Below, one piece after another: positions 3,028 through 8,486 of a stretch of DNA of 64,000 nucleotides. The notes below the pieces were generated by a model that had not been told where the DNA came from, searched no databases, and saw only the letters and a list, made by a program, of their open reading frames with translations. The DNA is taken from contig CBDETC010000002.1 of assembly GCA_965242845.1 (NCBI GenBank), positions 297,038 through 361,037 on the forward strand, given 5' to 3'. The DNA is from Balneolaceae bacterium. Its GTDB lineage: Bacteria; Bacteroidota; Rhodothermia; Balneolales; Balneolaceae. Positions within the stretch are counted from its first letter, which is position 1. Each line of letters starts with the position of its first letter. Both the position numbers and the translations under genes were made by a program.

Positions 3028-3819
3028 ATGTTTGATTTTCACTCCGATAAATCAGTCTACTTTAACTATCAGTACTATACTTCTAAAGAGTATATCATCC
3101 CCTTTCTAGAACGTACTTTTGAGCTTTCTCCATCTATGAAAGTGCTCGAAATTGGATGTGCCGAAGCCGGAGTACTTAAAGCTTTTACAGAACGTGGCCA
3201 TAATTGTGTGGGGATTGAACTCAGTGCCCACCGTGTAAAACTAGCTGAACAATTCTTATCAGAAGAAATCGAGAAAGACCAAATTCGATTTTTGACAAAG
3301 AACATCTATGACCTGGATGTACAAAAGGATATCGGGCATACCTTCGATCTGGTAATCCTCAAAGATGTGATCGAACACATTCATGACCAGGAGCGATTTT
3401 TTAGAGCACTACGACAATTGTTATCTCCCAAAGGGAAAATCTTCTTTGGCTTTCCACCCTGGCAAATGCCATTTGGAGGTCATCAACAAATCTGTTCAAA
3501 CAAATTCCTAAGCCTCCTTCCCTATTATCACCTGCTTCCGATGGGAGCTTATACTGGCGTACTAAAGGCGTTCGGAGAAACTGAAAAAAAGATAGCTGCT
3601 CTTGCAGAAATAAAGGAGACGGGCATTTCAATAGAGAGATTTGAGCGTATTTACAATGCTCAGAACTATACATTGCTAAAGAGACAGCTTTTTCTCTTCA
3701 ACCCGATTTACAAGTATAAGTTTAAGCTAACACCAAGAACTCAATTCGGAGTTATCGCAGGAATTCCATGGTTGAGAAATTTCCTTAGCACCTGTGCTTA
3801 TTATGTACTTGAAGCTTAG
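3028..3819 (+). CDS. class I SAM-dependent methyltransferase
   Basis: Motif I VLEIGCAEAG and post-I/II blocks (DLVILKDVIEHI). The stop codon overlaps the stop of the convergent gene. Confidence 0.7.
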   Translation: MFDFHSDKSVYFNYQYYTSKEYIIPFLERTFELSPSMKVLEIGCAEAGVLKAFTERGHNCVGIELSAHRVKLAEQFLSEEIEKDQIRFLTKNIYDLDVQKDIGHTFDLVILKDVIEHIHDQERFFRALRQLLSPKGKIFFGFPPWQMPFGGHQQICSNKFLSLLPYYHLLPMGAYTGVLKAFGETEKKIAALAEIKETGISIERFERIYNAQNYTLLKRQLFLFNPIYKYKFKLTPRTQFGVIAGIPWLRNFLSTCAYYVLEA

Positions 3820-4922
3820 ATAAGAGATAGCTTCTTGTCATAAAGCTCTATACAAGCTTTCCAGTCATAACCTTCTACAAGAGGTTGGGGAATAATTGAT
3901 TTTACCTGACTCCAGTTAATCAGCATGTTCTCCAACGCTTCAGCAAAACTACCTTCTTCATACAAACAGAGTTTTTTTAGCTCTTCAGAAAGATGCTCAG
4001 GATAAGCTAAGCGATCCGGAAGTAGCGGAATGCAATTGCAGTACATTGCCTCAACTACACTCCCACCAAAAAAATCCTGGATAGAAGTAATCGGAAGAAT
4101 ATCTGCCTTCCACAACCAGGAAGCATAATCGCTTCCTTTTTCAGTAAATCCCCAATGCAGGATTTCTTCTTTGAACAATTCCCTGGCAAGATTAAAAATG
4201 GGAGGTATTACATCGTTCTGCTCACCTAAAACCACCAGGTTAAAGGAAATGCCCTTCTTTTTTATATGATGCAGACCCTCGAAGAATTCCTCGGGATTTT
4301 TATCGTACTCCCATCGATGATTCCAGAGAATCACAGGGGCTGTATTCTTTGCTTCTACTCTGAATTTATCGAAACGAGATAAGTCCACTCCCAGGTGTAA
4401 CACCTCACTCTTTGCTTCTATTAGCTGGATATTGCCTTTATCCCGTTTATCAGGGAATTGGTTTAGAAAAGCAGGAAGTGCATTCAGAAAAGAATCTTTA
4501 TGGTATTGGGAATTGAAAAAGATTCTGTCCGCAGCCAATGCTGAAGCATAGTTAATAAATGCGTAATGATTATCCCGTCGATTCTTTACATCTCTGTCTT
4601 GAGGAGACCAGGGATAGGTGAGCTGATTTTCATGGAAATAAACACTCACAGGTATTCCAGCCGACTTTTTCCTTGTAAGCGCCAGAAAAGTGGTTAAATC
4701 AAGCATAGATGAAGCGACGATAGAGTCCGGCACCTTTTCAAGCTGATTGAATTGCTCAGCTAACGCAATCGCTCCTCCATGCATCCTCCACTTCCAGTGC
4801 CTTCCGGGCAGGCTTAGAATATCTACCTGATGAGCGGAGTGTTTCTTATACCCCTCGCACCATTGCTGATGGGATCCGGAAAAGAACGGTTCTATTAATA
4901 AAATGTGCCGGGTAGCAGACAT
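3816..4922 (-). CDS. DUF3524-domain glycosyltransferase, homologue of eukaryotic GTDC1
   Basis: 368 aa. Blocks ILLIEPFFSGSHQQW, YFHENQLTYPW, ILWNHRWEYDKNPEEFF and DFFGGSVVEAMYCNCIPLLPDRLAYPE parallel the GTDC1 blocks I recall (IIEAFYGGSHKQL, YFHENQLIYPV, WPHRWEHDKDPESFF, EFFGVAMLEAVYCGCYPL). Confidence 0.75.
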   Translation of the reverse strand: MSATRHILLIEPFFSGSHQQWCEGYKKHSAHQVDILSLPGRHWKWRMHGGAIALAEQFNQLEKVPDSIVASSMLDLTTFLALTRKKSAGIPVSVYFHENQLTYPWSPQDRDVKNRRDNHYAFINYASALAADRIFFNSQYHKDSFLNALPAFLNQFPDKRDKGNIQLIEAKSEVLHLGVDLSRFDKFRVEAKNTAPVILWNHRWEYDKNPEEFFEGLHHIKKKGISFNLVVLGEQNDVIPPIFNLARELFKEEILHWGFTEKGSDYASWLWKADILPITSIQDFFGGSVVEAMYCNCIPLLPDRLAYPEHLSEELKKLCLYEEGSFAEALENMLINWSQVKSIIPQPLVEGYDWKACIELYDKKLSLI

Positions 4923-4923
4923 A

Positions 4924-5949
4924 CTACCTAAGCTCCTGGATCGCCCGTTCTAATATCGTATCGATGCCGTTGACGGCATCAACAGTGCTAATCCAGACAG
5001 GAATATCAGGATAGATTCCGGTGTATTGATAATCACGACCTTCCGGAAGCTCTTTCTGCGTATTGGAAACGCGCATGCCCCAGCCGTTTGGTAATGCGGA
5101 TAAGATCGGATTTCCACTTCCCCCTCCAGTTGTATCACCAATTATAGTAGCATGAGGAATAGTTCTCATCCCAGAAATAAACCATTCTGTTGAGCTAAAG
5201 CTCCTTCGGTTTGAAAGAACGGCAACAGGTTTTAGATATCGGTCTCCTTCATAAACATCGGTAATTTTTTCCCACCAACCTGTAAAACTGGTTCTTGAAT
5301 CTGGTAATCGGCGCCGGGCTCGAAAAGATAGTCGACCTTCATCATTGAACCTGGAAACAATGATATCAGCATTATTGGAATTACCTCCTCCATTGGATCT
5401 CACATCTATAATAATACCATCTGTATCCCAAAGCAGGTCCAGTATATCATCGATAGCCAGGTAATTGGAAGTGGCCAGGCTACCCGTAAACGTACTTATT
5501 TTTATGTAGCCAATATTCTCCCCATCAATTATTCCATAATCGAGGGCATTATTGAAAGATTTATATTCACTAAAATAGCCGGAAATATCTTCCAGCTGGT
5601 TTTCAGGGTACTGATCATACCAACCCGTATAGCTTATTGCTCCTCCACTGCTAAAAAAGACATTGCTATGTCCGTCCTGAAGTACATTTATAAGCTCTGT
5701 TAGTGAGGCAGTCAATTCGCTGCTACTCGGTCTATCTATAATCCTTTGTCGATTTACCTGGTAAGCAGAATCAAAATCGACATCTAAATATTCAAAGAAA
5801 GAGAACTTGGAATCTACTTCATCATAAAAGATATCATATGTAATCAATGGGTCCCCTGAATCAACATCTGAACCCAGAAAAAGATCCCCACACTGAACAA
5901 GTGTAAAGCTTACCAAAAGGAGAAGTGCTATTCTTTTTAAAGCGTCCAA
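4924..5949 (-). CDS. S41-family peptidase, predicted lipoprotein
   Basis: Signal peptide with a lipobox-like LVQC. Contains the IIIDVRSNGGGNS block and a SNRRSFSSTEWF serine block typical of S41 (C-terminal-processing / IRBP-like) peptidases. Confidence 0.7.
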   Translation of the reverse strand: MDALKRIALLLLVSFTLVQCGDLFLGSDVDSGDPLITYDIFYDEVDSKFSFFEYLDVDFDSAYQVNRQRIIDRPSSSELTASLTELINVLQDGHSNVFFSSGGAISYTGWYDQYPENQLEDISGYFSEYKSFNNALDYGIIDGENIGYIKISTFTGSLATSNYLAIDDILDLLWDTDGIIIDVRSNGGGNSNNADIIVSRFNDEGRLSFRARRRLPDSRTSFTGWWEKITDVYEGDRYLKPVAVLSNRRSFSSTEWFISGMRTIPHATIIGDTTGGGSGNPILSALPNGWGMRVSNTQKELPEGRDYQYTGIYPDIPVWISTVDAVNGIDTILERAIQELR

Positions 5950-6698
5950 AATAAACCTGCCGTAAAATATCTTCTTAGAAGTTTTTGGGTTTCCGGGTCT
6001 TCAAAACGGTGATATTTAAGACGAAATTCGGCTTTAAACGTCACATTTTCTGATAAAGGAAACCAGCCTCTTAGTGAGCTGGTTAAACTGTTGTATTCAT
6101 GCCATCCCAGGTTATAATTCCTGTTCTCCCTCAAGCTTTCAGGCCGACTACCGTAGGAAAGAAATCCAACCCCAAGCTGATATTGAACAAACGATTCTTT
6201 CAACTCAAATTCGGTGAGCATATGAAGTACGGGACCAGCCACATTCATCTCATAAGAGAATTCCTGCTGCGAGCTCCAATTCGTACTTAGGAAATAATCA
6301 TAGTATGAAAAGTGACCCCCTTGGGAAATCCCGAGAAAGATATTCGCTTTATCAGTAGGTGAGTACACCTTCCGAAAATAGGAGATATCCATTTCATAGT
6401 TCATCCCCGTTAGCTGCTCCGTATTCGAACCATCCAGCCGCTCCATGGTAAAGTCGTGCTGGAGATAAGTAATCGTAAATTTATGCTTGTCTGATTGGTA
6501 GCTTATTTCGGGGTTTATCACTACAAAACCAGCCGACTCAAATCTAAACTGACTGAGAAGAAAATCCCGCTGGTCAAGAGATGTAGTTCCCATGTTGGCA
6601 CCAAAAAACCATTGTCCCTGAACACCGACACTCAGGATCAGGCTAAAACTCAGTATCAATAAACTTTTTTTAGCTCTTACCAACGCTGACTCTCCCAA
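5937..6698 (-). CDS. hypothetical outer-membrane beta-barrel-like protein
   Basis: Signal peptide (LLILSFSLILSVGVQGQ), alternating aromatic/hydrophilic strands and an aromatic C-terminus (FTAGLFWTL). Overlaps both neighbouring genes. Confidence 0.4.
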   Translation of the reverse strand: MGESALVRAKKSLLILSFSLILSVGVQGQWFFGANMGTTSLDQRDFLLSQFRFESAGFVVINPEISYQSDKHKFTITYLQHDFTMERLDGSNTEQLTGMNYEMDISYFRKVYSPTDKANIFLGISQGGHFSYYDYFLSTNWSSQQEFSYEMNVAGPVLHMLTEFELKESFVQYQLGVGFLSYGSRPESLRENRNYNLGWHEYNSLTSSLRGWFPLSENVTFKAEFRLKYHRFEDPETQKLLRRYFTAGLFWTL

Positions 6699-7129
6699 AA
6701 GTAGTAGTTATGTTCCTCATCCAGCGTCCATCCTGTTCGTGGATATAGCTGATTTCCTATATCATTGGTTTTCGCCGTTTCCAAATACATGCCGGCCGCT
6801 ACGGTATCTTTGCAAAGTTGTTTAGCACGTTCGATGAGTGCTTTTGAGAAACCCATTCCTCTGAATTCTGGAGCAACATATAAATCATTTAACACCCAAA
6901 GGCGCTTCATTCGGGTAGATGAGAATAACGGATATAGCTGGGTAAACCCTGTTGCCTGCCCATACTCATCTCTGGAAATAAAGATGACCGACTCTTCTTT
7001 CTCAATGCGCTCTCTGAGGAATTTACTGGCAGCCTCAACATCAGATTCCTGCTCATAAAATACCCTGTATCCATCAAAGAGGACTGCAAGGTCATTTAGA
7101 TCATCTATGTCAGCCTGATATACATTCAT
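6677..7129 (-). CDS. GNAT family N-acetyltransferase
   Basis: 150 aa. Contains an acetyl-CoA-binding block LYVAPEFRGMGFSKALIERAKQL (Q/RxxGxG/A type). Confidence 0.75.
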   Translation of the reverse strand: MNVYQADIDDLNDLAVLFDGYRVFYEQESDVEAASKFLRERIEKEESVIFISRDEYGQATGFTQLYPLFSSTRMKRLWVLNDLYVAPEFRGMGFSKALIERAKQLCKDTVAAGMYLETAKTNDIGNQLYPRTGWTLDEEHNYYFWESQRW

Positions 7130-7130
7130 A

Positions 7131-7841
7131 TTAATCGGGAAATGAAGTTAATCTCTTGAGTTGAATCGTGAGTTCATCTCTTTTCCAAACCATCTGGTTC
7201 TCATTTTCAAATGAAAGCGCCCAATAATCTAAGCTTTTCTTTTCATCATAGTACAGAATATCCAATGTTGGTCGATGTGCATCAACTCTCCACATGCCAG
7301 AAGTTCTGCCTTCAGAACCCATCATATTGATTAGATTATCCCATCTGATATGAAAAAACTGGTACTCCCCTTCGGCATAGGTACCCGTGATGTCCTTCTC
7401 ACCTTCCCATACAACATCTATTTGCCATAACCCTACCACATTAGTTCTTAAATCCTTTGGTATTTCCTCGATCCGTTGATACGTAACAATGACTTCTTCT
7501 CCATTCTCCATCCTTTTCCAATGCATCACACCATCACTTATGAAATTGACTGAGAAAGCACCAAATTCATCTTCAAAACCAGTAATTGTGGTTAATGAGA
7601 TTTCCGATTTCTCCTTATTGAAGGACCAGGTCCCATCACCATTTTGAAGCCATCCATTTCCCGTTGTGAAACTTCCATCTCCATTAAACAAACTCCATTT
7701 AGCAACTGGGGTTAATTCCTCGGTTCCAACCTTTACGTTCGTAGCCTCCCATAAACCGGAGATTTGGGCCTCAATCTGTAACGAACTTAGTACCAGAACT
7801 AAAGAGAGAAGCATAGTTACTTTTTTCATCTTACTTGTCAT
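7131..7841 (-). CDS. secreted hypothetical protein (lipocalin-like repeats)
   Basis: Signal peptide ending in EAQ. Two similar halves both begin GLWE/GLWQ, reminiscent of lipocalin-like domains. No family was recognised with confidence. Confidence 0.35.
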   Translation of the reverse strand: MTSKMKKVTMLLSLVLVLSSLQIEAQISGLWEATNVKVGTEELTPVAKWSLFNGDGSFTTGNGWLQNGDGTWSFNKEKSEISLTTITGFEDEFGAFSVNFISDGVMHWKRMENGEEVIVTYQRIEEIPKDLRTNVVGLWQIDVVWEGEKDITGTYAEGEYQFFHIRWDNLINMMGSEGRTSGMWRVDAHRPTLDILYYDEKKSLDYWALSFENENQMVWKRDELTIQLKRLTSFPD

Positions 7842-7871
7842 TGATTTAGATGGTCATTTGATTTTGAACGA

Positions 7872-8486
7872 TTAATTCTTGTCCAGCCACTGTGATAATC
7901 CCATAACATCTGATCTGATTTCTTCTCTCCAGGATTCTCCGAATTTCTCATCGAGATACTTAAATACCTGGAAATTGTAATCGACCATGCATTCACTACC
8001 TGGACTTACACAACCAAAGTCCTCGTATTTGAACCCATATTTTTTTTCATGAACCTCTTGGCCCCAAAATATAACAGGAGCTATTCCTCCCTGAATTAAT
8101 AACCTAGGTTTTCCAACTTCAATATCTCGATTCGCTTCTAGCTCATTGATTACACAATCAGCAATGGAGAGTAGATTCAAACCTTCAACAGGATGGTTCT
8201 TCACTACTATTTGGGTATCGATCTTTGAGCTTCCAAATCCCCAAAAATCAAAAGTGTATTTCCCTGGTTCTAGATTTTCTATTAGAAAATTACCCTTACT
8301 ATCTAGTTCAATTATTTTGTTAACTGGCCCATCTAGAATAAAGGTATAATCCTCTGGTGTATATCTATTAAACCCTACCAGAACTTCAATTGATCCTGCT
8401 ATATACAATGAATCTAATTTATTCTGTGCGAACGTGTTAAATCCGCTCCAGAGAAATATTAAAAGTATGCCAAGAGATTTCCCCAT
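7872..8486 (-). CDS. secreted hypothetical protein (CarboxypepD_reg-like N-terminal domain?)
   Basis: Signal peptide ending in FAQ, followed by a beta-sandwich-like segment (GKYTFDFWGFGSSKIDTQIVV) and a C-terminal Cys-containing domain. Confidence 0.3.
   Translation of the reverse strand: MGKSLGILLIFLWSGFNTFAQNKLDSLYIAGSIEVLVGFNRYTPEDYTFILDGPVNKIIELDSKGNFLIENLEPGKYTFDFWGFGSSKIDTQIVVKNHPVEGLNLLSIADCVINELEANRDIEVGKPRLLIQGGIAPVIFWGQEVHEKKYGFKYEDFGCVSPGSECMVDYNFQVFKYLDEKFGESWREEIRSDVMGLSQWLDKN

Follow-up and report, generated by a model that had tools for sequence, protein, structure and literature searches.

In a 64,000-nt stretch of DNA from a Balneolaceae bacterium, hereafter called the window, we examined a gene for a bacterial relative of vertebrate QTMAN (GTDC1). 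Its sequence shows the open reading frame (ORF) to be real and intact, and to belong over its full length to the QTMAN/GTDC1 family. We lean modestly toward the view that its product is a cytoplasmic, retaining glycosyltransferase acting on queuosine (Q) at position 34 of tRNA (Q34). An earlier note on this DNA had placed an ORF of 368 amino acids (aa) at positions 3816-4922 and called it a homologue of GTDC1; the ORF is present there, uninterrupted, on the minus strand. The genome from which the window was taken is 98.9% complete and lies on 3 contigs. The gene and the parts of it discussed below are:

3816..4922, minus strand: QTMAN/GTDC1-family glycosyltransferase gene (paralogue A), uninterrupted ORF of 368 aa
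4386..4904, minus strand: N-terminal QTMAN_N domain (PF12038), residues 7-179, the presumed acceptor-binding half of a GT-B fold
4623..4634, minus strand: HENQ motif, H97-E98-N99-Q100, at least 98% identical in 82 bacterial and vertebrate sequences, with H97 in all of them
3903..4370, minus strand: C-terminal GT1/GT4-type nucleotide-sugar-binding domain, residues 185-340 (PF00534, PF13692 and fold matches)
4299..4316, minus strand: R203-W-E-Y-D-K208, the R-x4-K donor-phosphate motif of GT4-type enzymes, with K208 aligned to human K296

The domain content was determined with a Pfam search. PF12038 (QTMAN_N, formerly DUF3524) matched with an E value of 5.9e-64 and 215.3 bits (cut-off 25), covering profile positions 2-168 of 168. 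Directly after it, PF00534 (Glycos_transf_1) matched with an E value of 4.1e-11 and 43.2 bits (cut-off 26.4), and PF13692 also matched the C-terminal domain (30.2 bits, E 6.1e-07). No NCBIfam model, including those for known GT4 functions, scored above its cut-off with the 368-aa protein. The protein has neither a signal peptide nor a membrane segment, and its first Rossmann strand begins at residue 6. The family is already named after the animal enzyme in Pfam, NCBI and UniRef, and this ORF is an ordinary member of it. NCBI and UniRef tag the bacterial members by homology as [quoted passage not shown], and "DUF3524 domain-containing protein" is also used.

Vertebrate QTMAN is described as the alpha-mannosyltransferase of tRNA queuosine (Zhao et al., Cell 2023, cited by PMC11755703 and bioRxiv 10.64898/2026.06.28.735034). 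To compare the ORF with it, a human GTDC1 sequence was used as a search probe only, and the vertebrate QTMAN sequences themselves were taken from the protein database. Many vertebrate proteins bearing the name tRNA-queuosine alpha-mannosyltransferase were returned, among them one from macaque with 96% identity to the probe. Against entry P0391 the listed identity was 100%, with one residue different in the 82-sequence alignment described below. In a BLASTP comparison with macaque QTMAN, the ORF product gave significant matches over both domains: 38% identity over 163 aa in the C-terminal domain (E 2e-33) and 31% identity over 188 aa in the N-terminal domain (E 4e-25). Together with the Pfam matches, these bear out the homology to GTDC1 that the earlier note had proposed. 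That note had relied on four pairs of near-identical blocks, YFHENQLTYPW/YFHENQLIYPV, WNHRWEYDKNPEEFF/WPHRWEHDKDPESFF, LHWGF/LHWGY and FFGGSVVEAMYCNCIPL/FFGVAMLEAVYCGCYPL, all of which were found in the macaque alignment.

Conservation was assessed with an alignment of 82 sequences, consisting of 69 bacterial sequences from many phyla, 8 sequences of a second Balneolales paralogue and 5 vertebrate sequences. At 46 positions the alignment is at least 95% identical. The N-terminal half holds 22 of the 46, including S17-H18, W43, W45-R46, Y95, H97-E98-N99-Q100, R116, D132 and K171, while the rest are in the C-terminal domain and include W200, R203-W204, D207, F284-F285 and A292. R203, W204 and D207 are invariant across the 82 sequences. 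We take R203-x4-K208 and D283-x7-E291 to be the donor-binding motifs of GT4-type enzymes. K208 lies within the W-x-H-R-W-E-x-D-K motif and aligns to human K296. A preprint states, citing Zhao et al. 2023, that the K296A change in human QTMAN abolishes formation of mannosyl-queuosine (manQ), for which this lysine is required (bioRxiv 10.64898/2026.06.28.735034).

In GT-B enzymes, the N-terminal half binds the acceptor. Because the residues of this half are so conserved, the bacterial proteins would be expected to use the same kind of acceptor as the vertebrate ones. An AlphaFold2 model built from a 63-sequence alignment (pLDDT 92.9, pTM 0.90) has two Rossmann-like halves. When the model was compared with the PDB by Foldseek, every named top match was a retaining GT-B enzyme (GlgM, glycogen synthase, sucrose-phosphate synthase (SPS), MshA, BshA, OtsA, PimA and WaaG). 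The predicted fold is as expected for an alpha-transferase, in a generic way. A sequence search of the PDB returned only a weak, generic GT1 match (E 0.007), and no QTMAN structure was among the solved structures.

The best structural matches, namely MshA, BshA, SPS, GlgM, OtsA and tetrahydrobiopterin glucosyltransferase, point to another possible role, in which the protein would glycosylate some unrelated small molecule in the cytoplasm, for instance in making a compatible solute, a precursor of a low-molecular-weight thiol or a pterin glycoside, and tRNA would have become the substrate of the animal enzyme only later. The position of vertebrate QTMAN on a long, separate branch of the protein tree would fit this. 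We consider it unlikely, since the structural matches are generic (TM 0.40-0.71, 10-16% identity) and the acceptor-side domain is specific to this family, with key residues identical in vertebrates and bacteria. Placing vertebrate QTMAN inside the bacterial diversity was tried and rejected: in a tree with vertebrates as the sole eukaryotes, its long branch is equidistant to all bacterial groups.

A Q34 glycosyltransferase needs a host that makes Q, and the earlier note had asked for a search of the genome for the pathway. The host holds tgt, two queA genes, an intact queG ending at a natural TAA, and a gene for a YhhQ-family precursor transporter (G000:C3:904287-904787). All four tRNAs with GUN anticodons (Asp, Asn, His and Tyr) are also present. 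A lack of both Q biosynthesis and salvage, which would have argued against a role in Q modification, is thus not seen in this genome. The two QueA paralogues are full-length (G000:C2:832894-833934, minus strand, and G000:C3:43956-44939, plus strand; 418.7 and 379 bits). No queH, queF or convincing queC was found in the 98.9%-complete genome. Since these three were not found while tgt, queA, queG and yhhQ are present, the host probably imports or salvages preQ1 and then finishes Q on the tRNA; the genome has the look of an obligate preQ1 salvager. The host TGT has a canonical preQ1-type pocket, in which the motifs LDEC and GGLSVGE supply Cys158 and Val233 (Z. mobilis numbering). According to published work, these two residues determine whether a TGT is specific for preQ1 or for queuine (PMC3660597). 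A search with Rfam near the Q genes detected no preQ1 riboswitch and no other element.

The family is large: more than 6,000 relatives were found, and about 1,000 clusters (50% identity) match at E values of 1e-30 or below. The closest relatives of the ORF, at 81-82% identity, are proteins from Balneolaceae metagenome-assembled genomes (MAGs). The ORF product is about 50% identical to members from Bacteroidota, Thermodesulfobacteriota, Chloroflexota, KSB1 and others, and Balneolaceae proteins show about the same identity to those of Desulfuromonadales, KSB1 and Chloroflexota. The protein tree largely tracks taxonomy. Within Rhodothermia, the class of the host, 147 of 151 high-quality genomes have the family, which makes it a core gene there. 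It was not found in any of 14 model genomes, with B. subtilis and E. coli among them. Of 50 genomes that carry the family, drawn from at least 10 phyla, 48 have queA and 47 have tgt.

The association with Q genes was examined more closely in Chloroflexota, using 251 genomes with a completeness of at least 90%. The family is present in 22 of these genomes, TGT in 220 and QueA in 177. All the carriers are TGT-positive (22/220, compared with 0/31 TGT-negative genomes), which also speaks against an unrelated small-molecule acceptor. By QueA content, carriers make up 4 of 177 genomes with both TGT and QueA and 18 of 43 genomes with TGT but no QueA. At first sight this pattern seemed to count against a Q acceptor. 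The gene in this phylum travels with a non-canonical TGT, probably of queuine type, and not with QueA. In all 10 sequenced TGTs of QueA-less carriers, FDEL is found instead of FDEC and GGSLG(A/G/S/E)(N/D)K instead of GGL(A/S)VGE, so that Val233 and Glu235 are missing, and a 22-residue insert follows DSGGFQVFSL. This TGT subtype (at least 73% identity) occurs in 19 of the 251 genomes, all of them without QueA, and 17 of the 19 carry the family (loci L091-L100, L127 and L128; genomes G413, G445, G300 and others). These 17 carriers are probably one clade. The nearest relatives of the subtype, at 55-56% identity, also have the GGSLG motif and the insert, and related GGSLG-type TGT genes lie directly beside Qng1 in two genomes, G207 and G433 (L123, L124). 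Qng1 is a queuine-releasing enzyme known mainly for its part in queuine salvage in eukaryotes. It is also present in the eighteenth QueA-less carrier, together with the GGSLG/insert type of TGT seen in the Qng1-adjacent relatives.

Because the determinants of the Val233/Cys158 type are changed and relatives adjoin Qng1, this TGT can be read as queuine-type. On the simplest reading, QueA-less Chloroflexota carriers would place queuine itself in the tRNA, in the manner of eukaryotes, and would thereby have Q34 without QueA. A direct link between Qng1 and the family was considered and rejected, as Qng1 is present in only 1 of the 22 carriers. Qng1 (DUF2419, PF10343) was detected in 68 of the 251 Chloroflexota genomes and in none of the 14 model prokaryotes.

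The co-occurrence with TGT and not with QueA could also mean that the acceptor is another compound related to 7-deazaguanine: queuine or queuosine in free form, glycosylated to store it, export it or control salvage; tRNA-bound epoxy-Q or preQ1; or the 7-deazaguanine base of some other nucleic acid. Indeed, a conserved acceptor domain does not by itself imply that the acceptor is bound to tRNA. We regard these alternatives together as improbable, given that the sole characterized member of the family acts on tRNA Q34, that preQ1 has no hydroxyl group to serve as acceptor, and that the TGT type of the QueA-less carriers is linked elsewhere to queuine salvage, which would provide complete Q.

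The surroundings of the gene in the window suggest a different role at first sight. The following neighboring genes were noted:

4924..5949, minus strand: S41-family peptidase gene (Pfam), upstream of the glycosyltransferase gene and adjoining it only in this genus
4924-8486, minus strand: four genes located here in this genus only, encoding the S41 peptidase and outer-membrane-like (253-aa), secreted (236-aa) and secreted (204-aa) proteins
3028-3819, plus strand: class I S-adenosylmethionine (SAM)-methyltransferase gene, converging on the glycosyltransferase gene, with the 3' ends overlapping by 4 nt (3816-3819)

As the earlier note had said, the glycosyltransferase gene is the last member of a tight array. 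It is the eighth of eight closely packed co-directional genes, its ATG lies 1 nt past the TAG stop of the S41 peptidase gene, and a strong sigma-70-like site precedes the first gene. The peptidase and glycosyltransferase genes are probably co-transcribed here. This arrangement, along with an automatic JGI label reading "involved in cell wall biosynthesis", would agree with an envelope or polysaccharide glycosyltransferase whose partners are the secreted and outer-membrane proteins encoded upstream. The four genus-only genes, three of which have no Pfam family, sit between genes for a COG2509 FAD protein and a GNAT protein and the glycosyltransferase gene. Other phyla, and relatives with 65-68% identity, do not have them at this position. 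Elsewhere in the Balneolaceae the gene is preceded by the COG2509 FAD protein gene with or without the GNAT gene, or is divergent from Rrf2 regulators, and a Saprospiraceae relative has yet another set of neighbors. The caution about a tRNA role that the earlier note had drawn from the array is not supported for this reason. The missing signal peptide and membrane segment also weigh against an envelope function, as do the core-gene distribution and the identity of about 50% across phyla, which are unlike those of surface-glycan transferases. Of the alternatives, this one is the least likely, and we consider it very improbable.

For a broader view of the neighborhood, 875 ORFs from 80 loci in at least 10 phyla were clustered. 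In none of the 80 loci was the gene in a polysaccharide or glycan cluster, and no linkage to genes of solute or thiol pathways was seen, the latter being a further point against a small-molecule acceptor. The sole recurrent neighbor was an alpha/beta-hydrolase gene directly downstream, in 13 loci that were mostly from Saprospiraceae. This hydrolase had no detectable relationship to an alpha/beta-hydrolase encoded near the gene in Chloroflexota. The convergent SAM-methyltransferase gene keeps its position in three Balneolaceae loci only. With no conserved linkage beyond the lineage-limited hydrolase, the neighborhood was rejected as a functional clue: gene context favors neither an envelope nor a tRNA role.

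Several observations weigh against a Q34 glycosyltransferase. No glycosylated queuosine from any bacterium and no assay of any bacterial family member was reported in the literature searched; DUF3524 and bacterial QTMAN were not mentioned there either, in agreement with the earlier note, which gave no known substrate for the bacterial proteins. No Q gene recurs in the 80 loci, and tgt lies within 7 kb of the gene in only one. Three of the 50 carriers, which are MAGs of uncertain completeness, showed no tgt. In Chloroflexota, the co-occurrence with TGT (22/22) compares with a background of 88%, giving a p value of about 0.05 from related genomes that are not independent. QueA is not needed for the gene to be present, as 18 of the 22 carriers are without it, and a role in Q modification in those genomes depends on their TGT being of queuine type, as its motifs suggest. 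Finally, vertebrate QTMAN combines its long branch with an insert of about 100 aa between the domains that the protein studied here does not have.

Glycosylation of Q34 is still the explanation we prefer. The protein would be a soluble GT-B enzyme, orthologous to animal QTMAN, that moves a hexose from a nucleotide sugar to the cyclopentenediol of Q34 in one or more of the tRNAs with GUN anticodons. Binding of the donor would fall to R203/K208 and D283...E291 in the C-terminal domain, while the family-specific N-terminal domain (H18, W43, W45, R46 and H97-Q100) would bind Q34 and the anticodon loop as acceptor. For the animal enzyme the donor is GDP-mannose. In the host, Q would be supplied by uptake of preQ1 through YhhQ, followed by the canonical TGT, QueA and QueG, in that order.

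A second member of the family was found on another contig of the host genome:

L002:904-2010 (= G000:C1), minus strand: paralogue B gene, directly downstream of mutL

Paralogue B is also 368 aa long and is 39% identical to paralogue A. It is 74-89% conserved across Balneolales genera and forms a long, order-specific branch in the tree. Paralogue A is canonical, nests among Bacteroidota sequences and, within the class, is limited to certain genera of Balneolaceae. In the B clade, the donor motif is WNQRWQFDR compared with WNHRWEYDK in A, with the changes H202Q, E205Q, Y206F and K208R throughout the clade, and the host's own paralogue B has HENL in place of HENQ. The gene often follows mutL; as a general feature this linkage was rejected, since it is kept in Fodinibius and not in Gracilimonas.

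One conceivable consequence is that Balneolaceae make two different decorated queuosines through paralogues A and B, a bacterial parallel to manQ and galactosyl-queuosine (galQ) in animals, with B differing in its sugar, its target tRNA or both. We hold this to be doubtful. On this view, paralogue B may also be connected with the second QueA copy: two copies of queA are present in all 75 sampled Balneolales, and one copy is found elsewhere in the class except in one family. A tie between the two duplications was examined and rejected, because they do not co-vary. Genomes with two queA genes have one, two or no QTMAN-like gene, and the two duplications share a single node.

Glycosylated queuosine is generally regarded as an animal feature. 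If the bacterial members carry out the same chemistry, glycosylation of Q would be ancient and widespread, with the family being core in Rhodothermia/Balneolales and present in many phyla, and the animal enzyme would be of bacterial origin. Cultivable bacteria, or E. coli, which is naturally free of the family, would then offer a simple system to study what a sugar on Q does. Taken alone, the gene in the window is one more intact member of an already named family and is ordinary in that respect. What is new here is the pattern with TGT type in Chloroflexota, where the gene is linked to a non-canonical TGT and not to QueA, and the diverged second paralogue that makes two in the host genome. It is also useful to know that the envelope-array context is irrelevant.

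Among other bacterial DUF3524/QTMAN entries, the host stands out by its gene number: among the 50 diverse carriers only Balneolaceae have two paralogues, and in the class as a whole this is confined to a subset of Balneolaceae genera. The protein shares its overall fold and the R-x4-K and E/D-x7-E motifs with retaining GT-B enzymes of the GT4 type (MshA, BshA, PimA, WaaG, GlgM, and glycogen and sucrose-phosphate synthases). It differs from them in its low identity and TM values, given above, and in an N-terminal domain that is a Pfam family of its own. GluQRS (YadB) is the bacterial enzyme that adds glutamate to Q34 of tRNA-Asp. The same cyclopentenediol of Q34 in bacterial tRNA would be the target of both proteins, but GluQRS is a paralogue of aminoacyl-tRNA synthetases, unrelated in fold and chemistry to a glycosyltransferase. 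Vertebrate QTMAN is the closest comparison. It has the same domain order, QTMAN_N and then GT1, with 31-38% identity over both domains, and has in common the HENQ, W-x-H-R-W-E-x-D-K and F-F-G...E-A-x-Y-C motifs and the N-terminal S-H and W-x-W-R motifs. The essential lysine K296 of the human enzyme corresponds to K208 here, and a retaining GT-B fold is predicted. The vertebrate insert, which is of low complexity (human residues ~183-285), is absent from the bacterial protein. The hosts also differ, in that this bacterium would build Q on the tRNA from preQ1, whereas eukaryotes insert queuine. The QueA-less Chloroflexota carriers, with their putative queuine-type TGT and a QTMAN homologue, resemble eukaryotes in gene content.

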